A stretch of DNA of 49,784 nt, taken from positions 1 through 49,784 of the forward strand of contig JBBIOR010000007.1 of NCBI GenBank assembly GCA_037443265.1, given 5' to 3'. Of this stretch, positions 18,533-49,013 are shown piece by piece. Both the position numbers and the translations under genes were made by a program. Below the pieces are notes generated by a model that was not told the origin of the DNA, made no database searches, and saw nothing but the letters and a program-made list of their open reading frames with translations. Source of the stretch: Candidatus Fraserbacteria bacterium (GTDB lineage Bacteria > Bipolaricaulota > Bipolaricaulia > RBG-16-55-9). Position 1 is the stretch's first letter, and every line of letters starts with the position of its first letter.

Positions 18533-18551
18533 CTTCTTCGCTTCTCCGGGG

Positions 18552-18624
18552 CAGGCCCGGGAGGAGTTGAACCCCCAACCTGCGGATTTGGAGTCCGCTG
18601 CTCTGCCAATTGAGCTACGGGCCT
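18552..18624 (-). tRNA. tRNA-Trp(CCA)
   Basis: AGGCCCG acceptor stem, GCGGA-CT-CCA-AA-TCCGC anticodon arm, TTCAA T-loop; 3' CCA not encoded. Confidence 0.95.
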
Positions 18625-18670
18625 GTATCTTCTACTTTACGCGTGCCCATGCCTCTCTGCAAGGCCAGCG

Positions 18671-18817
18671 TCAGACTTCCTTGTGGACGGTGTGCTTGCG
18701 GCACCACTTGCAATATTTGCGCAGTTCCAGCTTGGAGCGCACCGTCTTGGGGTTCTTCGTCGTGTGGTAGTTTCTGCGGCGGCACTCGGTACAAGCTAGC
18801 GTCACATGCTCTCCCAT
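18671..18817 (-). CDS. rpmG: 50S ribosomal protein L33 (zinc-binding type)
   Basis: Hand translation [48 protein letters not shown] (48 aa, below the ORF cutoff); two CxxC motifs. Confidence 0.96.
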
Positions 18818-18826
18818 GGCCTCTCC

Positions 18827-20026
18827 TTATTCGATGATCTTGGTGACGACTCCTGCGCCGACGGTCCGGCCTCCCTCACGGATGGCAAATCGGAGGCCCT
18901 CTTCCATGGCGATGTGCTTAATTAACTCCCCGGTGATGCGCACGTTGTCGCCAGGCATCACCATCTCGACGCCATTGGGGAGCGCGATCGTGCCGGTCAC
19001 ATCCGTGGTGCGGAAGTAGAACTGGGGTTTATAGCCCGAGAAGAAGGGCGTGTGGCGCCCGCCTTCGTCCTTGGAGAGCACGTAGACCTCGGCCTCAAAT
19101 TTCGTATGCGGAGTGATCGAGCCGGGGGCGGCCAAGACCATACCGCGCTCCACATCTTCCTTTTCGATGCCGCGCAGAAGCACCCCGACGTTGTCTCCGG
19201 CGATCACCTCATCGAGGGTCTTGTTAAACATCTCCAGGCTGGTGGCCACGGTCTTGATGGGCTTCTCGCGCAGACCCACCAGCTCGACTTCTTGGCCCGG
19301 CAAGAGCCGACCGCGATCGACCTTGCCCGTCACCACCGTACCGCGCCCCTTAATCGAGAAGACGTCCTCGATGGGCATGAGGAACGGCTTATCGACTTCG
19401 CGCTTGGGCTCGGGGATGTACTCATCGAGGGCCTTGAGCAGATCATGAATGGGCTGAGTAGCCTGAGGGTCGTTGGGGTTCTCCAGGGCTCGTTTGGCCG
19501 AGCCGCGGATGACCGGCACCTTGTCGCCCGGGAACTCGTATTTGCTCAGAAGATCCCGCACTTCAATCTCCACCAGATCGACGAGTTCTGGATCATCGAC
19601 CAAGTCGACTTTATTGAGGAAGACGACGAGGGAGGGCACGTTCACCTGGCGGGCCAAAAGCACGTGCTCCCGGGTCTGGGGCATGGGGCCGTCGGCCGCG
19701 TCCACCACCAGAATCGCTCCGTCCATCTGGGCCGCTCCTGTGATCATGTTCTTCACATAATCGACGTGGCCGGGGCAGTCGATGTGGGCATAGTGGCGCC
19801 TCTCCGTCTCGTACTCCACGTGGGCGACTGCCACGGTGAGAATCTTTGAGGCATCGCGGACCACACCGCCCTTGGCGATCTCGGCATAGGACTTCTCCTT
19901 GGCCATGCCCTTCTGGGCCAAGACTTTGGTGATGGCCGAAGTGAGCGTGGTCTTGCCGTGGTCGATGTGGCCGATGGTGCCCACGTTGATATGCGGCTTG
20001 GTCCGCTCAAACTTCGCTTTCGCCAT
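18827..20026 (-). CDS. tuf: Elongation factor Tu
   Basis: [42 protein letters not shown] at 20026 after AGGAGG. Confidence 0.98.
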
Positions 20027-20090
20027 ACAAACCCTCCTTGAAGAATTGATGGAGCGATCAGCTCTCAGCCGGGGCTGATCTTGATCCAAG

Positions 20091-20162
20091 AGCCCGCGGC
20101 CGGGATCGAACCGGCGGCCTTTTCCTTACCAAGGAAACGCTCTACCACTGAGCTACACGGGC
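20091..20162 (-). tRNA. tRNA-Thr(GGT)
   Basis: TTTCC-TT-GGT-AA-GGAAA anticodon arm, GGTTCGATCC T arm. An upstream TTGCCG-N17-TATAAT promoter is also visible. Confidence 0.95.
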
Positions 20163-20207
20163 GCGATCTGGTGATTATAGCGGAAAATTTCCCCGCCGGC
20201 AAGCAGG

Positions 20208-20290
20208 TGGAGGGGGAGGGATTCGAACCCCCGAAGGCTTCAGCCACGTGGTTTACAGCCACGCCCGGTTGACCACTTCGGTACCCCTCC
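20208..20290 (-). tRNA. tRNA-Tyr(GTA)
   Basis: GGAGGGG/CCCCTCC acceptor stem, CGTGG-CT-GTA-AA-CCACG anticodon arm, long variable arm. Confidence 0.95.
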
Positions 20291-20293
20291 AGG

Positions 20294-20365
20294 AGCCGGC
20301 GGGAGGATTCGAACCCCCGACCCACGGTTTACAAAACCGCTGCTCTGCCCCTGAGCTACGCCGGC
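20294..20365 (-). tRNA. tRNA-Thr(TGT)
   Basis: GCCGGCG acceptor stem, GCGGT-TT-TGT-AA-ACCGT anticodon arm, GGTTCGAATCC. Confidence 0.95.
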
Positions 20366-34354: not shown

Positions 34355-35413
34355 GTGTGGAACGTCCTTTGGAAAGCGACCTTCTATCTGGGCTTGATCG
34401 GCCTGGGAGCCCTGGTGACAGCCGGGCAGAGCCCTGTGAGCCTGCGCGTAGATGGTCAGATCGTTCAGCTCTTATGGCTCAATCTGCTGGTGGGGGCCTT
34501 AGGGGGAGCCCTGGTCGCCGGGTTCATGCATGCCGTCTCCGCGGCCGTCTTGAAGCGAGTGGCGGCGGGCGAAGGCGTGGCGCTGCTCAACGGCGGGCTG
34601 GTCGGACTGGTCGGCGCCCTCTTTGGACTGCTCGGCTATGGCATTCTTGAGCTGCTCTTTGCTCCCAGCCTCTGGCTCCAGCTGGCCGAAGCCGGCCTCC
34701 TCTTCTTCCTGACGTTTCTGGGCTTTCGGATCGGCTACAGCAAAGAGAATTTATTTTTGGCGCTGGTGAGCGGGGAGAAGCTCGCCGTGAAGCGCGCGTG
34801 CCCCAAGCTGATCGACACCAGCGCCATCATCGACGGGCGCATCGGAGATCTGGTCAAGACGGGGTTCATCGAAGGCGTGATCCTCTTGCCGCAGTTTGTG
34901 CTCGATGAGCTGCACAGCATTGCCGACTCAGCCGACAGCCTCAGGCGCCGCAAGGGCCGCCGCGGCCTGGATATTCTAGGAGAGCTGCGCCGTCACCCCG
35001 ATGTGCGGGTCGAGATCCTCGATCGCGATTACCCTGAGATCCACGGCGTCGATCGCAAGCTCATCCAACTCGCCAAGGAGCTGGAGGCGAAGATCATCAC
35101 CACGGACTTCAACCTCAACAAGGTGGCCAAAGTCGAGGGCATCCAAGTTTTGAATATCAACGAGCTGGCCAACGCAATCAAACCGCGCTTCATCCCCGGC
35201 GAGGAGCTGGAGGTGGAAGTGATCGATCGCGGGGAGGAGATCGGGCAGGGCGTGGGCTACCTCGACGACGGCACGATGGTCGTGGTGGAGAACGGGCGCC
35301 GCTTCATCGGCAAGAAGATTCGGGCGGTGGTCTCCAGCTCGCTCCAGACGGAAGCCGGCAAGATGCTCTTCGTGCGCCCTAAGGTCGAAGTCGACGGCCG
35401 GATGGAAGAGTGA
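34355..35413 (+). CDS. Membrane PIN/TRAM-domain protein (YacL-like)
   Basis: N-terminal TM helices, DTSAIIDGRI, RGLDIL, TTDFNLNKVA, GVGYLDDGTMVVVE; upstream of ispD as in Firmicutes. Confidence 0.92.
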   Translation: MWNVLWKATFYLGLIGLGALVTAGQSPVSLRVDGQIVQLLWLNLLVGALGGALVAGFMHAVSAAVLKRVAAGEGVALLNGGLVGLVGALFGLLGYGILELLFAPSLWLQLAEAGLLFFLTFLGFRIGYSKENLFLALVSGEKLAVKRACPKLIDTSAIIDGRIGDLVKTGFIEGVILLPQFVLDELHSIADSADSLRRRKGRRGLDILGELRRHPDVRVEILDRDYPEIHGVDRKLIQLAKELEAKIITTDFNLNKVAKVEGIQVLNINELANAIKPRFIPGEELEVEVIDRGEEIGQGVGYLDDGTMVVVENGRRFIGKKIRAVVSSSLQTEAGKMLFVRPKVEVDGRMEE

Positions 35414-35689: not shown

Positions 35690-36391
35690 ATGAGCCGGAG
35701 GAGGGTAGGGGTCGTCGTGCTGGCGGCCGGCAGAGGAAAGCGCATGGGGGCGTCCCTCCCCAAGCCGTATCTGCTGCTGCAAAAGAAGCCCATTCTCTGG
35801 TATTCTCTCGAAAAATTTTCGAAGAGCCCGCTCGTTGAGGAGATCGTAGTTGTGATCCATCCTGAAGATCGCTCGCTTCTTGAGTCGTGCGTTTTGGAGG
35901 CGTACGCCTTCGAGAAGGAGATCCGGGTGGGGCTGGGGGGGAAGCACCGTCAGGACTCCTCGCGGGCCGGAGTGCGAGAGATTCATTCTCATTGGGTGGC
36001 GGTGCATGATGGAGTTCGCCCGTTCTTCTCGCTCAAGCTGCTGGAGGCTGTCTTTGAGGCGGCCCTCTCTCATCGGGCGGCCATCCCGGCCATTGCCGTT
36101 GGGGAGACTGTCAAATCCGCGGATGCTGAGGGTTTCGCTGCAGCAGACCTCAATAGAGAGAGGCTCTATCTGGCCCAGACGCCGCAGTGCTTCGAGCGCT
36201 CATTGCTCGAACGCTCGCTCGAGGCAGCCCACAAACAGAAGCGTTATTTCACGGACGAAGCGGGAGTGGTCTGCGCGATGAGCGGGGTGCGGGCCAAGAT
36301 CGTGCCGGGCGAAGCGCAGAACATAAAAATTACCACGCCTTGGGATCTTAAGCTGGCAGAGGCGTTACTGCAAGCGGGCTTGGTGGGTTGA
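35690..36391 (+). CDS. ispD: 2-C-methyl-D-erythritol 4-phosphate cytidylyltransferase
   Basis: AAGRGKRMG, RQDS, VHDGVRP, AQTPQ, NIKITTPWDL. Confidence 0.95.
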   Translation: MSRRRVGVVVLAAGRGKRMGASLPKPYLLLQKKPILWYSLEKFSKSPLVEEIVVVIHPEDRSLLESCVLEAYAFEKEIRVGLGGKHRQDSSRAGVREIHSHWVAVHDGVRPFFSLKLLEAVFEAALSHRAAIPAIAVGETVKSADAEGFAAADLNRERLYLAQTPQCFERSLLERSLEAAHKQKRYFTDEAGVVCAMSGVRAKIVPGEAQNIKITTPWDLKLAEALLQAGLVG

Positions 36392-36408
36392 GTTAATGTT
36401 GCGCCTTA

Positions 36409-36622
36409 TTAATTGGGGGAACTACCGGCTGATGATGATTTTGCGGGCTTAAAACGCCAAAGGAGCAGAAGGCCCATGGCAGCCAGGTACACAACCACCG
36501 TCATTGAATCCCAAGATGCGTACTCCACTTGCGCTTTCAGTAGGTAGGGTGAAGAGGATAAGCATGATTGCGGCTCCTAACAAGAACCCACTAGCGAATG
36601 CTAGAACGGTTCGGCCGTCCAA
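36409..36622 (-). pseudogene. Small two-TM membrane protein, apparently frameshifted
   Basis: TTG start after GGAGG gives MDGRTVLAFASGFLLGAAIMLILFTLP..; a second TM stretch (TVVVYLAAMGLLLLWRFK) continues in the +1 frame. Confidence 0.4.
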
Positions 36623-36674
36623 TCTTTACATCACTTCCTCCACTCCTGAGACAGCTTCCAAATGATGTATTGAT

Positions 36675-37265
36675 TTAAGGGTGTGTAGCAAGTCCCAACA
36701 CGATGATGAGAGTTGTGAAGCCGCTTAAAATGGCCAGAATAGCTCCTGCTGCCATCCCCATTTCAAACCGCCCTTTAGAAAAAGCAAAGTAGCCTGCGAT
36801 CATGACTGAGTAAGCAAGCAGGATAGCGGGCAAATAACCAAGGGATCTGGGCCAGGCGGTGATCATAAAAAACAGCGACAAAATCGTCAACCCCAGCGAG
36901 TAAAACACCCAGAACTTGGTCATTTTCCGACTGATTGTATTTATGATGGCTTGATCTGTTGATTGGTCGGCCTTATCTGTCAGAGTCAAAAGCTTCATAA
37001 CGTGTAGGATCACGTGTAGTAAAAGAAAGACCGCTAATACTCCTGCCAGCATGTACTGCGCGAAAAACAGCGAACCGATCAGAGCTATCATCACAGCTGC
37101 ACTGCCCAATACAGAAAATGGCAGCACAAAACGCTTTCGATCCAGAGCGGATTCATATCGGTTCCATTGATAAGTCAGCAGGAAAACTGTGAACGCGGTT
37201 GCCAACACACTGTTGATTAAAACAGCCTCCCAGCCTGGATAGATAAATTCACTTAGAATTTCCAT
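36675..37265 (-). CDS. Multi-pass membrane protein, candidate immunity protein of cassette B
   Basis: About 6 hydrophobic segments; starts 23 nt after the Cys-rich precursor B. The immunity role is inferred. Confidence 0.7.
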   Translation of the reverse strand: MEILSEFIYPGWEAVLINSVLATAFTVFLLTYQWNRYESALDRKRFVLPFSVLGSAAVMIALIGSLFFAQYMLAGVLAVFLLLHVILHVMKLLTLTDKADQSTDQAIINTISRKMTKFWVFYSLGLTILSLFFMITAWPRSLGYLPAILLAYSVMIAGYFAFSKGRFEMGMAAGAILAILSGFTTLIIVLGLATHP

Positions 37266-37288
37266 AGCTCAAGCCCCTAACTTTGCGT

Positions 37289-38378
37289 TTATGTACACCA
37301 CGGTGCACAGTCTGGAGGTGGAGGTGTAGAACCACCTGATCCTAAAGATGAACTAGAGCTGGGGTGGAGACAGCCTCTACAGCTAATTCCTGTGGCCAAA
37401 AGTTCAAGCCCTGTTGTGAAGGCCGCCCCGAGGCAACCGATGGGGCCAAAGAAGCAAAAAGCCAACGACCACCCAGTTGTAACGGTAGTAGCTGCGCTTA
37501 CTCCGCAACCCATGCACGAGAGATTATCGTGCGTTTGCCCTATAACCAGGCTCTGTCCACCAGTGTCTTCGGAAGCGACAAAGGCAGAGACCATTGCATC
37601 AATGTACTCTGAATTCTTTGTCAAGAGGCTGCCAACACGACTATAATGCCTCCATAATTTCCAATCTTTCGCCCTCCCGAGTTTTCTCTCTGTGCTCTCC
37701 GAAACACCTTCCAGGTCATTGTAAATATGAGGTGCCACATCTATTGTGTCATCCGGCAAGTGAATCTTGAATCTATGCCCCGAAAGGCGTTCCGCCAATT
37801 CAGATCGGTGATTCACAAATTGCTTATAGGCATGATCCTTTAATCGAATGCGCTGGTTCTTATCAATCAACCCACGCGCGTTAAAAGGCCAAAAGCCTAA
37901 TGTAGTTAATGCCTGTAACATTTCTTCAACTCGACTGGCGTCATAATTTGATGTAGCGGTAATCAAGTTCCCATCTTGATCCACCGAAAAAAGGAATAGT
38001 TCACCATCCCCGATAAGGACCCTACTGGTAATGGCACCACTCTTCCCCTCATAGGTAAGGTCAAACCCATGAAGTCTATCCTCCCAATTGATTGGAATTG
38101 CAGTGATCGCTTCATCCTTAAGCTTTAAATAGGCCTTCTTCTTCCCCTGCCTCAATCCATCAAGACCCTGCCCTTGAACTGGATCAACATCTTCTATTGA
38201 AATAATTTGGCTGGGCTTGACTTAGCTCAGGGATAAAGGCTTCTAGAGAACCACATCCCGTCAACCCGCCCAGCGCCATCAACCCGGTCCCGACTCCCAT
38301 GGCCCTAAGCACCTTTCTACGTGTGAGTCCTCCCCGACCTTCCTTGACCTCTTCGTATGTCTCTTTGCCACAGCACAT
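37289..38378 (-). pseudogene. Tat-lipoprotein precursor B with a Cys-rich bacteriocin-like C-terminus, split by a +1 frameshift
   Basis: ORF 38184-38378 carries TRRKVL and the lipobox LTG|C. Removing one base near 38206-38208 joins it to ORF 37289-38155, giving about 362 aa. Confidence 0.75.
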
Positions 38379-38414
38379 GACTTGTACCTCCTTCTTTGGC
38401 GAACTTCAAGTCCC
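38253..38414 (-). repeat. Direct repeat copy 1 (5' UTR, RBS and Tat-lipoprotein signal)
   Basis: GGGACTTGA.GT.CGCC..GAAGGAGGTA..ATGTGCTGTGGCAA.GAGACATACGA..; similar to 40105-40267. Confidence 0.9.
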
Positions 38415-38583
38415 TCTGTACTTGAGAACCACATGGCGAACCTGTTTGACTTGATAGGGTTTCGCCTTGGAGTCTTTGGGTTGCAGGTTCAAGATCTCTG
38501 CTACCCCGTCCTTGGTGAAGATATGATGGTCACCCCAGACTCGCTCTTCGAATCCCAGCTTGCGGAGCAACTGGCATAGTCCC
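38406..38583 (-). pseudogene. HicA-family toxin remnant
   Basis: LCQLLRKLGFEERVWGDHHIFTKDGVAEILNLQPKDSKAKPYQVKQVR matches the HicA pattern; no proper start, C-terminus cut by the repeat, no hicB nearby. Confidence 0.75.
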
Positions 38584-38593
38584 GTGTTCGTTT

Positions 38594-39307
38594 TCAGGGC
38601 TGATGCAAGGAGGCCAGGAAGAGCACAAGGGGTGAAAGCACCAGAGGGAGCACCATGAGGGTCAATGTGATGAGAGTCTCCTGACACTTCTCCAGAACAA
38701 AGCTGAATTCTTTGGGAGCTTTGGCCACTCTCAATCCCTCTTCCAGAGATGACCGTGGAATTGATTCTAAGTTCCAGATCACGGATTTCGGCGCTCTAAG
38801 AAGATCCGGATCATGTGCATACATAAAGACGAGATCTTCAGGAACGAGCCACATGATCAGTCGAGGGATCAAATCAGGGGTAAGGAAGATCGGTAGCAAA
38901 TAGAAGACCAAGGCCAAGACCAGTATGAAGGACGAGCTGAAGCTCAAATCGAGCCGTGCGATGAATTGCTGGCTTATATACAGCGATAGTAGTAGCAGAC
39001 TGTAAACACCTAAGATGGAGCTCCACCCAAACCAGAGCACTCTTCTTCTAGCTAGCCTGCTCCATCTTGGGAGGCTTTCGGATGGAGGATGGATTCGTAA
39101 CAAATATGGATAAAAGCCGATAAGATGATCCTTGATGTAGAAGAACAAATAGACGGAGCCTATCGTCAGAAGGAACAGAAAAGCCTTTGCTTGAAGGCGA
39201 GCTTGAACGTCGGAGTTCAAGTGAGTCATCAGCAAAGCAAATAGCGTTGCGATCAGGAGAAAGACGGCTACCAGTACTAGCAAAGGGGATAACCTTAACC
39301 TGACCAA
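38594..39307 (-). CDS. Multi-pass membrane protein, candidate immunity protein of cassette A
   Basis: About 5 TM segments; TTG start downstream of GAGGAG; directly after precursor A. Confidence 0.7.
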   Translation of the reverse strand: MVRLRLSPLLVLVAVFLLIATLFALLMTHLNSDVQARLQAKAFLFLLTIGSVYLFFYIKDHLIGFYPYLLRIHPPSESLPRWSRLARRRVLWFGWSSILGVYSLLLLSLYISQQFIARLDLSFSSSFILVLALVFYLLPIFLTPDLIPRLIMWLVPEDLVFMYAHDPDLLRAPKSVIWNLESIPRSSLEEGLRVAKAPKEFSFVLEKCQETLITLTLMVLPLVLSPLVLFLASLHQP

Positions 39308-39378
39308 CCTTGGGCGACTCCTCTTAGTCTACTACTCTACTTAAGGAACCTCGAAACATCCTACCTTGTCTTGGTGAT

Positions 39379-40230
39379 CTATCCTCTCTGCCACTCAAAT
39401 GTCAGACCTGCCAAACCATCATCCCTACAGATCCACCGACATGCCAGGTGTCCTAATATTGCCGTACCCAAATAGCAAGCCACATCTCCGATTCCTGGCT
39501 CTGGTCCATCCGCTGTAACGAGTATAAGGCATACTAACAGTCCAGCCGCGATCGCAACTGCATCGCATACCCACATGCATACCGTTTGAGCCCGGACTGG
39601 TAGGTCTTCTTCTCTGATTTCTAAGCTACTTGCACCGGAAACATCTGAATCAATACCCTCGATTACCCTCCGCCAATGTCGACTCCAACCTCCATCCTTC
39701 AGGATCGGCTCTAAGACTTCCTTCTTCCCGGAGGTCGGGAAATCTCTCTTGATTGCGTCAATTTGCTTAGGCCAAAAGACGTCCTTCAGCTCATTGAGGA
39801 AGTGATCCTCAAAGCCTTCAGGGAATTCCACAACTTCTGGAGCCTCTCGAATGACCTGATCAATCTGACTGCTGATGCCTATCTGATCTAGGTGGTCCAG
39901 AGCGTTAAGGGTTAGCTCCTTAGCCTTTTTTACTCTCTTGTCTAGTTCTTCCTTGGAGACTTCTTCCAGATGGTTCACTGCTTTTAGGACTTTCTTCCAT
40001 TGATTCCCTGATGCCTGAATGATATCCTTGGCGACTTGCCTTGCGCTGAGAGCAGTCAAGTTCCCGTTAGAATTTTCCCTGGCTGGAAACTGGAAAAGTT
40101 GCGTACACCCCGTCAGCCCACCCAGCGCTACCAACCCTGTGCCGACTCCCATCGCCTTGAGCACCTGTCGCCGTGTAAGTCCTACCCGAGCTTCCTTCCC
40201 TTCCTCGTATGTCTCCTTGCCACAGCACAT
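39379..40230 (-). CDS. Tat-lipoprotein precursor A (283 aa) with a Cys-rich bacteriocin-like C-terminus
   Basis: MCCGKETYEE..TRRQVLK..LTG|C signal, AAGGAGGT SD, C-terminal C-x3-C-x11-C-x17-C-x11-C-x3-C. Confidence 0.85.
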   Translation of the reverse strand: MCCGKETYEEGKEARVGLTRRQVLKAMGVGTGLVALGGLTGCTQLFQFPARENSNGNLTALSARQVAKDIIQASGNQWKKVLKAVNHLEEVSKEELDKRVKKAKELTLNALDHLDQIGISSQIDQVIREAPEVVEFPEGFEDHFLNELKDVFWPKQIDAIKRDFPTSGKKEVLEPILKDGGWSRHWRRVIEGIDSDVSGASSLEIREEDLPVRAQTVCMWVCDAVAIAAGLLVCLILVTADGPEPGIGDVACYLGTAILGHLACRWICRDDGLAGLTFEWQRG

Positions 40231-40267
40231 TTCTTTTACCTCCTTCGTTCGGCGGACGTCAAGTCCC
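40105..40267 (-). repeat. Direct repeat copy 2 (5' UTR, RBS and Tat-lipoprotein signal)
   Basis: Similar to 38253-38414; the similarity stops at the lipobox Cys codon. Confidence 0.9.
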
Positions 40268-40268
40268 C

Positions 40269-40318
40269 GGTAAGGTAAGGTAAGGTAAGGTAAGGTAAGG
40301 TAAGGTAAGGTAAGGTAA
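40269..40318. repeat. Perfect pentanucleotide microsatellite (GGTAA)10
   Basis: Ten exact tandem copies counted in the sequence. Confidence 0.97.
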
Positions 40319-40346
40319 GAGTAGCAGAACTTTAAAGATTTGTCAA
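40318..40346 (-). promoter_or_regulatory. Promoter of the island operon
   Basis: TTGACA (40346-40341), N17, TACTCT with an extended TG; directly abuts the microsatellite. Confidence 0.75.
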
Positions 40347-40476
40347 GACCCTCCAATCTGCTGCGATGAAAACCCGGGATTGTGAGATTCTACAGGAAAT
40401 GCTGCTTCTAGCTTTGTGAGGAAGAGCGAAGTTATAATAATCAGAGCTCGGAAAGTTTTTCGGAGGAATACGAACG

Positions 40477-41142
40477 ATTTCTAAGAAGACCTTTGACATT
40501 GACATCGCTCTGCACCGGATTGAGGGGGCTGTCCGGCCGTACCCGAAGGCCGCGCTCTTTGAGCTGGCCGAAGAGGGTTTCAATGCGCCCTTTGAGATTC
40601 TCGTGGCTTGCATCATCTCGATTCGAACTTTGGATGAAGTGATGCTCCCAACGGCGCGTAGGCTATTCGCTCGCGCTCGCTCTCCACAAGCCCTTGCAGC
40701 TCTGACTCCACAAGAGATCGACGAGCTCATTCGAGCATGCACGTTCCATGAGCGCAAGGCGCATCAGATTCACGCCATCGCAAAGCGCGTCATCGAAGGA
40801 TACAGCGGCCGACTGCCCTGCGATGAGGGGGTCTTGCTCTCGTTTGCGGGCGTGGGGCCGAAGTGCGCAAATCTCGTGCTGGGCATTGCTTGTGGTCAAC
40901 CGCGGATTGCGGTAGACATCCACGTGCATCGCGTCACGAACCGTTGGGGCTACGTGCGAGCCTCCGCTCCCGAGCGCACCCTGGCTGCCTTGGAAGGGAA
41001 GTTGCCGCGCCGTTATTGGGTGGACATCAATCGTTTGCTGGTGCCGTTTGGCAAGCAGATCTGCACGGGGCAGTTGCCTCGTTGCTCCATCTGCCCTGTG
41101 CTCGATATGTGCCCGCGCCTTGGAGTCACAGCCCATCGTTGA
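40477..41142 (+). CDS. nth: Endonuclease III (HhH-GPD glycosylase with 4Fe-4S cluster)
   Basis: GVGPKCANL HhH, VDIHVHRV, C-x6-C-x2-C-x5-C. The Nth-like frame extends upstream to an ATT at 40477 after GGAGG. Confidence 0.9.
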   Translation: MSKKTFDIDIALHRIEGAVRPYPKAALFELAEEGFNAPFEILVACIISIRTLDEVMLPTARRLFARARSPQALAALTPQEIDELIRACTFHERKAHQIHAIAKRVIEGYSGRLPCDEGVLLSFAGVGPKCANLVLGIACGQPRIAVDIHVHRVTNRWGYVRASAPERTLAALEGKLPRRYWVDINRLLVPFGKQICTGQLPRCSICPVLDMCPRLGVTAHR

Positions 41143-45707: not shown

Positions 45708-46457
45708 ATGCGCTGGGGCAGCAAGCGGCAGCGAACGGAGTCCATTACCCAACTGAATCGGATCCCAATCGTGGAGTGCGGTGAGCCGTTGGTGCACTTG
45801 GCTGAGGTCTGTCCAAAGCTCCTGCTGGCGCCGCGGCCCGGTCGGCCGGAGACGCGCTACGTCCGCGCCACCGTCGCCCGCCTGCTCAACCGGGCGCAGG
45901 AGCTCCTGCCGTCCGGACATCGCCTGCTCATCTTCGACGCCTATCGCAGCGCGGCCGGCCAGGAGCTCCTCTACGAGCGGATCCTCGCCCGGCTGCGCGC
46001 CGAGCACCCCAACTGGCCGCTGGCCGTGCTGCATCGGGAGGCCAACCGCTACGTCCATCCCCCCCATGCCAAGACCCCGCCCCCCCACAGTACCGGCGGG
46101 GCCGTCGATCTGACCGTGGTCGGACCGGACGGGCGGCCCTTGGGCATGATCGCCCCCTTCCGGGACCCGGAGAACGAAGCCGCCGTGGGCATGGGCCTGC
46201 TCAACGCTCGAGAGACCTCGCCCTACGCCCGCTTTCCAGATCTCGCCTACACCGACAGCCCGCGCATCAACGAGATCGCGCGGGAAAACCGTCGAATTCT
46301 CATCGACGCGATGACGGCGGCCGGCTTCACGAACTATCCGGGTGAGTGGTGGCATTGGTCGTACGGCGACTCCGGCTGGGCTCTCCGCACGGGGCGGAAG
46401 ACCGCCCTCTACGGCCGGGTGGACCTCGACCCGACGGCACTTGAGGAGAGCCAGTGA
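45708..46457 (+). CDS. M15-family D-Ala-D-Ala dipeptidase-like metallopeptidase, copy 2
   Basis: DAYRS, PPHSTGGAVD, EWWHWSYGD; ATG at 45708 after AAGGGGAG. Confidence 0.88.
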   Translation: MRWGSKRQRTESITQLNRIPIVECGEPLVHLAEVCPKLLLAPRPGRPETRYVRATVARLLNRAQELLPSGHRLLIFDAYRSAAGQELLYERILARLRAEHPNWPLAVLHREANRYVHPPHAKTPPPHSTGGAVDLTVVGPDGRPLGMIAPFRDPENEAAVGMGLLNARETSPYARFPDLAYTDSPRINEIARENRRILIDAMTAAGFTNYPGEWWHWSYGDSGWALRTGRKTALYGRVDLDPTALEESQ

Positions 46458-47899
46458 CGCCTTCAGCGGGAGTCCGACGCCGAGCCCTCGGAGTCGTCTG
46501 GATTGCCACCTTCCTGGGCGGCTTTGATGCCTATATCGTCAACCTCTCGTTGCCGCACATCGCGCGGGCGCTCCAGGCAGACATCGGCACGGTGGAGTGG
46601 GTGGTGCTCGCGTATCTGTTGGCGATCACGAGCTTCGTAGTGGCGTTCGGGCGGGCGGCCGACCTGTGGGGGGCCAAGCGGGTCTTCCTCAGTGGGCTGC
46701 TGATCTTCAGCCTGGGCTCTGCCCTGGCGGGCCTGGCTCCCGGTGTGGGGTGGCTGGTGGTCTTTCGGGGGCTCCAGGGGGCCGGGGCGGCGATGCTGCT
46801 GGCCACCGGCCAGGCGATCGTCGCCGACGTCTTTCCCGAAGGGGAGCGGGGCCGGGCACTGGCACTGGGCTGGATGCATGTTGCCGTCGCGACCGGTTTC
46901 ACTGCCGGTCCGATCGTAGGCGGCTGGCTGCTCGAGGGGGTGGGCTGGCGGGTGGTCTTCTTCGCTGCGGTGCCGGTCGGACTTTTCACTGCGGCCGTCG
47001 CGGTCCGCGTCCTGCCCCCGGCAAAGGGGGCCCATCCGCGCCCGCGTTTCGATCTGGCAGGGGCTACCGCACTGGCGCTCGGGAGTAGCGCGCTGCTGCT
47101 CGGCCTGACCTGGGGGCCCCAGGCGGGCTGGCTCGCGCCCCGCACGCTCGGAGCGCTCACCCTGGCGATGCTCTTGCTCACGGCTTTTCTGGCGATCGAG
47201 CGGCGGGCGGCGCAGCCCCTGATCACGCTCGGCCTGTTTCACAACTGGTCCTTTTCGGCAGGACTCCTCGCAGCCTTTCTGACTTTTGTGGCCATGGCTT
47301 CGAACATGTTCCTCGTGCCCTTCCTGCTCCAGGAGGGGCAACGCATGGCGGCGTCGCGGGCCGGGCTGGTGATGATCGCCGTGCCTCTGATGATCTTGTG
47401 GGTGGCGCCGCTGGGCGGTCGGCTGGCGGATCGCTACGGGCCGCGCAGGCTGGCCACCGCCGGGCTGGGGCTGGTCACCGTTGCGATCGGGCTCCTGGCG
47501 GACCTGGCGTCCAAGGGGGGCTCGCCGCTGTGGGCCGTGGCGGTGTTGGCCCTGTACGGCGCGGGAGCCGGGCTCTTCCAGGCCCCCAACAACAGCGCCG
47601 TGTTGGGGGCGGCACCCCCGGGCTGCCGGGGCGTGGCCTCGGGGATGTTGGTCACGGCGCGTCAGCTGGGCCAGATGCTGGGGGTGGCGGTGGCTGGGGC
47701 TCTGTGGGTCGGCCGGCAGGCGGCGTACGCGGCGGACGGGCTGCCCCCGGAAGAGGCGCTGGCCCTGGGATTGCGCGACGCCTTCTGGGGCTTGGCGCTG
47801 ATCGGCCTTTTGGCCGTGACGATCTCTTGGCTGCGGGGTCCTTCCCTCAGCTCCAAGATTCCTCGCGGTGACAGGGAGCGGCACCCGGAAGTAGGATGA
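46454..47899 (+). CDS. MFS efflux transporter, DHA2 (EmrB/QacA-like) family
   Basis: D.YIVNLSLP, GRAADLWG.K, RGLQGAG, GRLADRYG, FQAPNNSA. Confidence 0.92.
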   Translation: MTPSAGVRRRALGVVWIATFLGGFDAYIVNLSLPHIARALQADIGTVEWVVLAYLLAITSFVVAFGRAADLWGAKRVFLSGLLIFSLGSALAGLAPGVGWLVVFRGLQGAGAAMLLATGQAIVADVFPEGERGRALALGWMHVAVATGFTAGPIVGGWLLEGVGWRVVFFAAVPVGLFTAAVAVRVLPPAKGAHPRPRFDLAGATALALGSSALLLGLTWGPQAGWLAPRTLGALTLAMLLLTAFLAIERRAAQPLITLGLFHNWSFSAGLLAAFLTFVAMASNMFLVPFLLQEGQRMAASRAGLVMIAVPLMILWVAPLGGRLADRYGPRRLATAGLGLVTVAIGLLADLASKGGSPLWAVAVLALYGAGAGLFQAPNNSAVLGAAPPGCRGVASGMLVTARQLGQMLGVAVAGALWVGRQAAYAADGLPPEEALALGLRDAFWGLALIGLLAVTISWLRGPSLSSKIPRGDRERHPEVG

Positions 47900-47903
47900 A
47901 GCC

Positions 47904-49013
47904 ATGGTGAAAGAAGTGGCGCTCCTCTTCCTGAAGTTGGGCTGCATCGCCTTTGGGGGTCCGGCGGCCCACATTGCGCTGATGCGGGACGAGGTGGTCC
48001 GCCGGAGGCGCTGGGTGGACGACCAGGAGTTCCTGGACCTGGTAGGAGCCACACATTTGATTCCCGGCCCCAACTCCACGGAGCTGGCGATCTATCTGGG
48101 CCATCGCCGGGCGGGCCGGCTCGGCCTGATCGTCGCCGGGGTCTGCTTCATCGTCCTGGGGTTGGCCGTCGCCTACGTCCACTATGGAGCCGCTCCCCAA
48201 GCGGAGTGGCTCCTCTACGGCATCAAGCCGGTGATCCTCGCCATCATCCTGCATGCCCTCTGGGGTCTCGGCCGCCGGGCCCTCCGGGGCCCGGTACCGG
48301 CCCTGGTAGGTGGGGCCGTGATCGCCCTGTACCTCCTGGGTGTGAACGAGCTTCTGCTGCTCTTCCTCGGCGGGGTGGTCGGCCTGCTCTCCCGGCTGAG
48401 AAAGCACCTCTGGACGGCAGGGTTTCCGGCCTTAGGGCTCCCCTGGCTCGTCGGAAGCCTTTGGAGCTGGGCCGGCCCGGCGGACTTTAGCCTGCCGACC
48501 CTGTTCCTCAACTTCTTGAAGATCGGAGCGGTCCTCTACGGGAGCGGCTACGTGCTCCTGGCCTTCTTGAAGCGGGACTTCGTGGACCGGCTGGGGTGGC
48601 TCACCGACCGGCAGCTCCTAGATGCCATTGCCGTCGGGCAGCTCACCCCGGGGCCCGTCTTCACCACGGCTACCTTCGTGGGCTACGTGGTCGGGGGTCT
48701 TTCCGCGGCCCTAGTGGCCACCATCGGGATCTTCCTCCCCTCCTTCGTCTTCGTAGCTCTGCTGAGTCGGCTCCTGTCCTGGGCGCGCCGGTCCCCTTGG
48801 GTCCGGGATGTCCTGGATGGGGTCAACGCGGCCTCCCTGGGCCTGATGGCTGGCGTCACTTGGCAACTGGCGCGGGCGGCCTGGGTAGACGTCTTCACGG
48901 CGGTGCTGGTCTTAGGGGCCCTCGTCGTCGTGTTCGGCACCCGGCTCAACTCCGCCTGGATCGTGCTGGGCGGAGCCGGTGCGGGAGTGCTCTTCAAACT
49001 CCTCTCCAGCTAG
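47904..49013 (+). CDS. chrA: Chromate efflux transporter (CHR family)
   Basis: FLKLG..AFGGPAAHIA, IPGPNSTE, YGSGYVL, GQLTPGP. Confidence 0.92.
   Translation: MVKEVALLFLKLGCIAFGGPAAHIALMRDEVVRRRRWVDDQEFLDLVGATHLIPGPNSTELAIYLGHRRAGRLGLIVAGVCFIVLGLAVAYVHYGAAPQAEWLLYGIKPVILAIILHALWGLGRRALRGPVPALVGGAVIALYLLGVNELLLLFLGGVVGLLSRLRKHLWTAGFPALGLPWLVGSLWSWAGPADFSLPTLFLNFLKIGAVLYGSGYVLLAFLKRDFVDRLGWLTDRQLLDAIAVGQLTPGPVFTTATFVGYVVGGLSAALVATIGIFLPSFVFVALLSRLLSWARRSPWVRDVLDGVNAASLGLMAGVTWQLARAAWVDVFTAVLVLGALVVVFGTRLNSAWIVLGGAGAGVLFKLLSS

Follow-up and report, generated by a model that had tools for sequence, protein, structure and literature searches.

Candidate polymorphic lipoprotein toxins with a twin-arginine leader and putative membrane immunity partners in Candidatus Fraserbacteria

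Introduction

In loci of the contact-dependent inhibition (CDI) and Rhs types, proteins with a constant N-terminal part switch modules at a short conserved junction; the immunity gene lies downstream, and orphan modules keep their immunity genes. The immunity proteins of the Cdz bacteriocin and of TspA are membrane proteins. In the phase-variable lipoprotein families of Mycoplasma the mature parts diverge behind a 5' region and signal peptide that are conserved, and the genes are preceded by short tandem repeats. For halocin C8, the available text of a preprint describes the precursor ProC8 as a protein of 283 amino acids (aa) carrying a signal for twin-arginine translocation (Tat), cut into an N-terminal immunity protein and a C-terminal halocin of 76 aa (bioRxiv 10.64898/2026.07.27.741052). 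In the accessible part of the same source, the bacterial homologues of halocin C8 are defined by the model TIGR04449, and HalC8 domains are found also on polymorphic toxins of the Rhs type (bioRxiv 10.64898/2026.07.27.741052). Here we describe two tandem cassettes in a contig of a Candidatus Fraserbacteria bacterium (GenBank assembly GCA_037443265.1, contig JBBIOR010000007.1, positions 1 to 49,784; this stretch of 49,784 nucleotides (nt) is called the window). Each cassette encodes, whole or broken, a precursor with a common Tat-lipoprotein leader and, downstream, a membrane protein.

A model reading the letters of this DNA had proposed an array of polymorphic Tat-lipoprotein bacteriocins with immunity genes, and had pointed to halocin C8. 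We followed up this original prediction computationally. In our interpretation the precursors would form a family of polymorphic, Tat-exported, bacteriocin-like lipoprotein toxins with membrane immunity partners, of which the window holds one live and one decaying cassette; we give this interpretation about an even chance of being correct.

Results

Two cassettes with a common leader

The cassettes lie in an island at 36.4-40.4 kb of the window, which had been described as AT-richer than its surroundings; the GC content per kb is 0.523, 0.473, 0.500 and 0.479 inside and 0.60-0.63 on both flanks. The minus strand carries every long open reading frame (ORF) of the island. Read in the direction of transcription, these begin with precursor 1 (39379-40230), followed by the gene of a 237-aa membrane protein (38594-39307), a HicA-like remnant, leader 2 (38184-38378), body 2 (37289-38221), the gene of a 196-aa membrane protein (36675-37265) and a 57-aa protease remnant. 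The two leaders are near-identical, as first noticed, with 86 % identity in protein and 83 % over a DNA repeat of 145 nt.

Precursor 1 (type 1) is intact with 283 aa and consists of the leader, a helical carrier and a Cys-rich hairpin module. The expectation of one precursor ORF in each cassette holds for this cassette and fails for the second, where a frameshift splits the leader from the body. The ORF of leader 2 runs for 64 aa and ends at TGA; body 2 (type 2) is open for 310 codons in another frame, and one indel between 38186 and 38222 parts the two. Since body 2 aligns along its full length with intact homologues of 333-358 aa, precursor 2 is either a frameshifted gene or an assembly error.

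Leader 1 (40105-40230, 42 codons) has a long n-region, a twin arginine and a lipobox, and the consensus of both cassettes is MCCGKETYEE...LTRRxVLxAMGVGTGLxALGGLTGC. A strong ribosome-binding site, AAGGAGGT, lies upstream of it. In all 13 aligned sequences M1, C2, C3, G4, K5, R20, R21, V23, G32, L39 and C42 are invariant, the last being the cysteine of the lipobox L-T-G-C. The twin-arginine signal of precursor 1 is recognised by TIGR01409 with 17.8 bits (cut-off 16.7); the Pfam model TAT_signal gives 17.6 bits, which is under its cut-off of 22.7. The genome encodes TatC as well as LspA and two Lgt proteins, LspA and Lgt above the cut-offs of their models. The match above the TIGR01409 cut-off, the invariant Cys42 and this machinery bear out the proposed leader with twin arginine and lipobox. 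Across seven copies of the leader the mean non-synonymous divergence (dN) is 0.07 and the mean synonymous divergence (dS) 0.66; the leader is under purifying selection. It occurs in six copies in the 1.69-Mb genome and again in related genomes, which was the outcome of the search for further cassettes that had been advised, and its pattern is therefore not due to chance.

Leader 2 follows directly after the hicA remnant, without a promoter-like head or repeat tract of its own. A leader from another genus matches it with 97 % DNA identity (dS 0.14); for prmC the dS of this genome pair is 1.76, and the bodies behind the two leaders share 27-29 % protein identity. Among the leaders compared, dS ranges from 0.14 to 0.7. 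All members of the family carry or once carried the common N-terminus, except for a few type-2 relatives, among them P0028 with a plain Tat-lipoprotein signal and P0033 with a Sec-like signal.

According to the part of the source available, Fraserbacteria are diderm Terrabacteria with an outer membrane tether like that of Thermotogae (bioRxiv 10.1101/2021.05.31.446380). Because of this placement among the diderms, the lipoprotein could sit in either membrane.

Precursor bodies and hairpin modules

A complete precursor consists of up to five parts: a constant leader of 42 residues, an interchangeable folded carrier of at least two unrelated folds, a short disordered junction, a variable helical hairpin of 45-90 residues and sometimes a Pro-rich tail with Cys. 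The middle (carrier) domains had been called unrelated, and AlphaFold2 (AF2) models show different folds, helical in cassette 1 and a beta-sheet plus helices in cassette 2. Precursor 1 was modelled as all helical, with its C-terminal helices at residues 207-239 and 247-282 (predicted local distance difference test, pLDDT, 63; predicted template modelling score, pTM, 0.61). The model of body 2 (pLDDT 79.5, pTM 0.78) contains a seven-stranded sheet with helices. The order of its parts is a carrier of beta-sheet and helices, a disordered linker, a hairpin of the pattern CxxC..C..C..CxxC and a Pro-rich tail with two Cys.

A hydrophobic C-terminal module with six Cys had been reported for both cassettes. 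It is found in module 1 (residues 218-283 of precursor 1, window 39382-39579), and module 2 departs from it with eight Cys, six in the hairpin and two in the Pro-rich tail. In both types the hairpin is predicted to be helical, and the linker ahead of it has a pLDDT below 50 in the AF2 models. The hairpins are rich in Gly, Ala and Cys, with the spacing CxxxC...C...C...CxxxC in precursor 1 and CxxC...C...C...CxxC in type 2. Because this spacing varies between members, the cysteines are probably joined in disulfides and do not form a metal site. Of 34 members, 24 have a motif [AGS]Q no more than 14 residues ahead of the module, compared to 13 % of other windows in the same proteins, in a count where the members are not independent and the automatically chosen module start is wrong for a few. 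This motif and the disordered linker are the only pointers to a possible release of the C-terminal peptide by cleavage.

Membrane-protein genes and their linkage to module types

The precursors had been said to be followed by an orphan protein with several transmembrane (TM) segments each, and such ORFs were found at both places. The proteins of 237 and 196 aa, candidate immunity proteins or partners of modules 1 and 2, respectively, each have about six hydrophobic segments on the crude Kyte-Doolittle scale. Each matched only itself among 5.8 billion proteins, and the 237-aa protein belongs to no Pfam or NCBIfam family.

In the wider family, a TM ORF comes directly after eight of nine type-1-like cassettes, L029b being the exception, and after all type-2 modules examined. 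The large TM proteins are unrelated to each other (blastp, E <= 0.01) apart from two weak matches. Two families of small TM proteins, A5 and A6, were searched for by profile in all ORFs of the genome and of nine related loci. Apart from the sequences on which they had been trained, the profiles matched the 196-aa gene (E 7.3e-5), the gene C3:973-1473 (E 8e-10) and, in one cross-hit, a training sequence of the other family. Each of these extra matches stands directly behind a type-2 or type-2-like module, and none behind a type-1 cassette; across all ORFs of the genome the 196-aa gene is the only non-training match of one of the two profiles. By hhalign the 196-aa protein resembled the families weakly, with a probability of 7 % for A5 and 0.3 % for A6. 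The association between module type and membrane family makes the best case that modules and membrane proteins may be cognate partners. When a complex of a type-2 module with both small TM proteins encoded at the C31 locus was predicted, without controls, the score was 0.00 (mark 0.32), which speaks neither for nor against binding.

In genome G104, three tandem A5 paralogues and one A6 gene stand after a single orphan type-2 module (L011:8047-9366), a run that resembles tandem immunity-gene arrays.

Upstream region and repeat tract

Ahead of precursor 1 lies a promoter-like head (40318-40346, minus strand) with TTGACA at 40346-40341, a 17-nt spacer and TACTCT at 40323-40318. It is followed by (CTTAC)10 in the presumed 5' untranslated region, by about 38 nt that hold AAGGAGGT, and by the ATG. 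The tract (40269-40319, GGTAA on the other strand) was reported by Tandem Repeats Finder with period 5, 10.2 copies and 100 % matches. Runs of three or more CTTAC units are confined to three sites of the 1.69-Mb genome, where 10, 3 and 7 units stand shortly ahead of a leader; in related genomes the tract counts 11, 6 and at least 5 units. A head of the form TTGACA-17 nt-TA(C/T)(T/C)CT is present also ahead of leaders at C21, C31 and L011, and the genes so preceded come first in their arrays. A scan for consensus promoters misses the head, as only three of six positions of its -10 element match. The head may act as a promoter. Cassette 2 has no such head, and we therefore infer that only cassette 1 is expressed from it. 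In the minimum-energy fold of the 5' untranslated region the ribosome-binding site is paired with the repeat, with a z-score of -1.27, no better than shuffled sequences. The (CTTAC)10 tract may tune or switch expression by slippage.

Distribution and other loci

A search with precursor 1 returned 13 proteins including itself among 5.8 billion, all annotated as hypothetical and without a Pfam domain, and 28 representatives out of 1.84 billion were obtained with the profile of the type-2 body. Wherever a related locus belongs to a named record, this is a metagenome-assembled genome (MAG) of Candidatus Fraserbacteria. The leader was found in 9 of 184 genomes of the phylum, the source included, and in four of eight other genomes of the same family, counts in which the weakest matches may be ordinary Tat signals. 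The type-2 profile matches 9 of 35 genomes of the order. Scans of metagenome contigs with the family alignment and with P0011 as queries gave no confirmed locus.

The six leader copies of the genome are spread over three contigs, and a fourth, leaderless locus stands at the start of contig C3. Only two of the six copies head intact genes; the adjacent TM genes are whole. The leaderless type-2 modules C31:958-1500 and L011:7567-8037, which lie behind the main genes of these loci, correspond in alignment to the C-terminal half of whole type-2 precursors and are followed by small TM genes. In another genus the site next to ispD, the PIN/TRAM gene and prmC is occupied by a different, single cassette. 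Unbroken genes encoding 283-358 aa turn up repeatedly, in several independent assemblies and from several sources. Contigs often begin or end inside the leader or the repeat that precedes it.

Several further loci may be mentioned here. At the start of contig C3 (1-1500, GC 0.48-0.52) a type-2-like remnant, itself broken, is followed by genes for membrane proteins of 105 and 166 aa, the larger being the A6 match given above. At C21:30292-30697 a degenerate leader without the start MCCGKETYEE is fused in frame behind HicA and what remains of a HicB, and at C31:14-340 another, without ATG, is joined to the end of a type-1 module (GGGGGVVIEP). These two degenerate leaders look like products of recombination between cassettes. 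Regulators of the Crp/Fnr family (cNMP_binding and HTH_Crp_2) stand directly upstream of type-2 precursors at L031:5148-5696 (genome G101) and L034:1536-2252 (G072). They precede type-2 genes in two families of the order and may be dedicated regulators.

Comparison with known families and folds

For the proteins of the window, Pfam and NCBIfam gave only the Tat signal, the HicA remnant and noise. Pfam assigned no known family and no enzyme domain to 18 type-2 members. Profiles of both types matched nothing in the PDB by sequence below E 0.05, and Foldseek found nothing in the PDB for either model at E <= 0.001. In a wide VIA-align search the best result for type 2 had a Z of 5.1 (root-mean-square deviation, rmsd, 3.9; 98 residues aligned) with pieces of beta-barrels. 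For type 1 it was 10.1 (rmsd 2.6, 124 aligned) with designed four-helix bundles, which is under the informative level for helical proteins; the first hairpin helix is within the stretch so aligned. The ESM Atlas placed whole precursor 1 near an unnamed cluster (0.92), with a halocin C8 cluster at rank 4 (0.79), and the type-2 module alone near GrdA (0.81) and circular bacteriocins (0.76), all of which are leads only. The original prediction knew of no description of such a system in such a bacterium, and likewise our literature searches, as far as they reached, found no description of the family.

Flanks and other features of the window

The island is bordered by ispD (35690-36391; TIGR00453, E 3.6e-63) on one side and by an endonuclease III gene on the other. 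A search for direct or inverted repeats flanking it gave short matches at chance level and no att-like sites, no integrase or transposase was found among its ORFs, and an Rfam scan of 36000-41000 had no match at E <= 0.1.

The HicA-like toxin remnant (38406-38579, minus strand) has no clear start codon and matches Pfam HicA_toxin with E 4.7e-5 and 23.9 bits, below the cut-off of 27 bits; the window has no HicB. Its stop codon falls within the conserved segment ahead of the leader. It is 91 % identical to a copy on contig C21, behind which a HicB remnant and a further leader stand, and in the related locus L011 an intact HicB-like gene, above its cut-off, stands upstream of the head. The other remnant (36449-36622, minus strand, 57 aa) is what is left of the gene of a CPBP/Rce1-like intramembrane protease. 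Over 44 aa it is 66 % identical to the product of an intact gene of 311 codons that closes the array of the related locus L013, and that gene matches the Pfam family Rce1-like with E 6.9e-20.

The endonuclease III gene (plus strand) is open from 40441, yet has no ATG, GTG or TTG before 40603. The stretch 40441-40603 resembles a normal N-terminus of Nth, and GGAGG stands about 10 nt before an ATT at 40477. Either the gene uses a rare start codon or its start was lost when the island arrived. A PIN and TRAM protein with a long hydrophobic N-terminal part (34355-35413, plus strand) lies between prmC and ispD, and is kept at the same place with 83 % identity in a related MAG. Positions 46001-49000 have a GC content of 0.68-0.71 and a strongly negative AT skew, compared to a GC content of 0.60 elsewhere in the window. 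The tRNA genes for Trp, Thr, Tyr and again Thr at 18549-20365 (minus strand) form an ordinary cluster of four.

Discussion

The original prediction combined a general idea, constant leaders on variable toxins with immunity genes, and a specific one, a relation to halocin C8. The anatomy agrees with the former: the leader is constant, the modules vary and membrane-protein genes lie downstream. The specific homology was not supported, as discussed below.

Several lines of evidence support the interpretation as polymorphic toxins with immunity partners. The mosaic of conserved leaders and diverged bodies is suggestive of it. Leaderless orphan modules, and decayed precursors beside whole membrane genes, are found. 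The low GC content, the patchy distribution and the presence of a different cassette at the same site mark the cassettes as accessory elements. HicAB remnants and a predicted protease of the CPBP/Abi type alongside the arrays also seem to favour it. Further points in its favour are the TM genes behind nearly all cassettes, the co-variation of module type and membrane family, the genes for TatC, LspA and Lgt, the predicted helical hairpin behind a low-confidence linker, and the [AGS]Q motif at the junction. Cassette 2 would be a decaying copy whose membrane gene is still whole, comparable to orphan toxin-immunity modules.

A possible course of events can be outlined. The precursor would fold in the cytoplasm with the hydrophobic hairpin packed on the carrier, pass the membrane in folded form through the Tat pathway, and then be lipidated and cleaved by Lgt and LspA. 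The lipoprotein would be displayed on the envelope of the probably diderm cell. From there the disulfide-stapled hairpin, perhaps cut at the junction, may insert into the membrane of a competing relative, and the small polytopic membrane protein encoded downstream would shield the producer.

There are also observations that weigh against such a function. No dedicated protease or release factor is conserved; the CPBP gene was seen whole at a single related locus, and in the window a remnant is left of it. In a crude hydropathy scan neither the second helix of the hairpin nor the type-2 module reached the level of a TM segment. Several of the seemingly broken genes could be assembly errors, as the contig names of a related MAG give a coverage of about 2.3-2.6x. 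As they have no relatives, the coding status of the TM proteins of the window is judged from ORF length and hydropathy alone. None of the members or their neighbours matched a toxin, bacteriocin or immunity family in Pfam or NCBIfam or, by sequence or fold, in the PDB. Finally, a conserved leader with an upstream repeat tract and variable mature parts would fit phase-variable surface lipoproteins equally well.

The main alternative, which we regard as unlikely on the whole, is that the proteins are non-toxic, variable surface lipoproteins. The hairpin would then be a membrane anchor or docking element, and switching by the (CTTAC)n tract would vary the surface with respect to phages, predators, adhesion or kin recognition. 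Multigene families of variable lipoproteins in Mycoplasma combine conserved leaders with repeat-controlled expression. The cassettes agree with this pattern in that the leader and the 5' head are conserved and the mature parts diverge, and in that a perfect repeat of 3-11 units stands between the head and the ribosome-binding site and nowhere else in the genome; the lack of toxin homology in Pfam and NCBIfam is in line with it too. A varying surface leaves unexplained, however, why each type of module keeps its own downstream membrane gene, why leaderless orphan modules persist with their membrane genes, why precursors decay and the membrane genes remain whole, and why toxin-antitoxin and CPBP genes are neighbours.

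It is improbable, in our view, that the family belongs to the halocin C8 group as a genuine but strongly diverged member, in which the middle part would be a HalI-like immunity protein, the C-terminus the halocin, and the membrane genes would serve transport or another purpose. The architecture would be suitable, with Tat export, an N-terminal part of about 200 aa, a Cys-rich hydrophobic C-terminus of about 70 aa and, going by the available text on ProC8, the same length of 283 aa; the ESM Atlas cluster is a lead in the same direction and the sole link. However, neither TIGR04449 (halocin_C8_dom) nor PF22862 (Hac8_like_N) matches anything in the genome at E <= 10, and both match the Haloferax volcanii control, TIGR04449 above its cut-off. 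TIGR04449 is also not among the NCBIfam matches of precursor 1 or body 2 (E <= 0.1), and PF22862 is absent from the Pfam scan at E <= 1. The failure of PF22862 would be weak evidence alone, because in the accessible text of the preprint bacterial homologues also fail that model (bioRxiv 10.64898/2026.07.27.741052). A census of 26 bacterial homologues in the same source names other phyla in its accessible part (bioRxiv 10.64898/2026.07.27.741052). Moreover, the modules are borne by at least two unrelated carrier folds, unlike a single HalI-like domain. Since both models fail, we regard halocin C8 as the closest functional analogue and not as the family to which the precursors belong.

That the cassettes are decaying junk or mis-assembled strain variants in a repeat-rich, low-GC region of a MAG is hardly credible, for although contigs often break at the leader or repeat, several copies are frameshifted and the coverage of the related MAG is low by its contig names, intact genes of 283-358 aa are found in several independent assemblies, the leader is under purifying selection, the small TM family has a dN of 0.36 versus a dS of 1.26, and the AF2 model of type 2 is confident.

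If the interpretation as toxins with immunity partners is correct, a candidate phylum without a cultured member, of whose biology hardly anything is known, would use interbacterial weapons that travel on the housekeeping Tat and lipoprotein pathways with a private leader. The catalogue of polymorphic toxins would gain a new toxin module and new families of membrane immunity proteins, and the precursor of halocin C8 a functional parallel in bacteria. Contingency tracts of pentanucleotides are rare outside host-associated bacteria, and the (CTTAC)n repeat would add one. A bolder claim, which seems rather unlikely to us, is that the family is a new class of delivery, in which diderm Terrabacteria use the general Tat and lipoprotein pathways and a dedicated, strongly conserved leader to present interchangeable, membrane-active disulfide hairpins on the cell surface for contact killing of relatives, with hypervariable polytopic immunity proteins and, in the 5' untranslated region, a (CUUAC)n tract able to pair with the ribosome-binding site as contingency switch of the expressed cassette. 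Even if non-toxic, the family is a clear marker of rapid diversification of the surface or envelope in Fraserbacteria-like genomes and one cause of breaks in their assemblies.

Among the systems that the cassettes can be compared with, the Mycoplasma lipoprotein families have, to our knowledge, neither paired downstream membrane genes nor Cys-rich hydrophobic C-terminal modules. With CDI and Rhs loci the cassettes share the constant N-terminus, variable C-terminal modules that set in sharply at a short junction, a gene directly downstream and 5'-truncated orphans. They differ from them in that the proteins are small (250-360 aa), have no Rhs/YD or filamentous repeats, and are accompanied by no two-partner, type VI or other dedicated secretion apparatus.

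Hydrophobic, glycine-rich parts are also found in the glycine-zipper bacteriocin CdzC/D of Caulobacter, which, as far as the available text tells, stays on the surface of the producer (PMC5380434), and in the toxin TspA of the TspA/TsaI pair of Staphylococcus aureus, which depolarises the membrane according to the accessible part of its source (PMC7456083). These proteins leave the cell by type I and type VII secretion, respectively, carry no lipid, lack a Cys-rich hairpin and are unrelated to the precursors in sequence. The SitA lipoproteins of myxobacteria, encoded by sitBAI, are described in the text available as an N-terminal escort joined to a C-terminal toxin that is polymorphic; each has its cognate immunity gene, and one genome holds several cassettes (PMC8546572, PMC5562445). 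The cassettes described here resemble this arrangement. SitA toxins are transferred by TraAB-dependent outer membrane exchange and are nucleases that act in the cytoplasm; in the Fraserbacteria family the candidate immunity proteins are membrane proteins, the leader is of the Tat type, and no enzyme domain was found in 18 type-2 members and the window proteins.

The likeness to ProC8, taken from the accessible text on it, lies in Tat export, the length of 283 aa, a folded N-terminal part and a hydrophobic, Cys-rich C-terminus of about 70-76 aa. Unlike ProC8, the Fraserbacteria family has a lipobox, a long conserved n-region and several unrelated carrier folds. The genes around halC8 named in that text are those of a regulator and an ABC transporter (bioRxiv 10.64898/2026.07.27.741052), and those downstream of the precursors encode variable membrane proteins. 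The family is new, and the kind of system that it most resembles is known.

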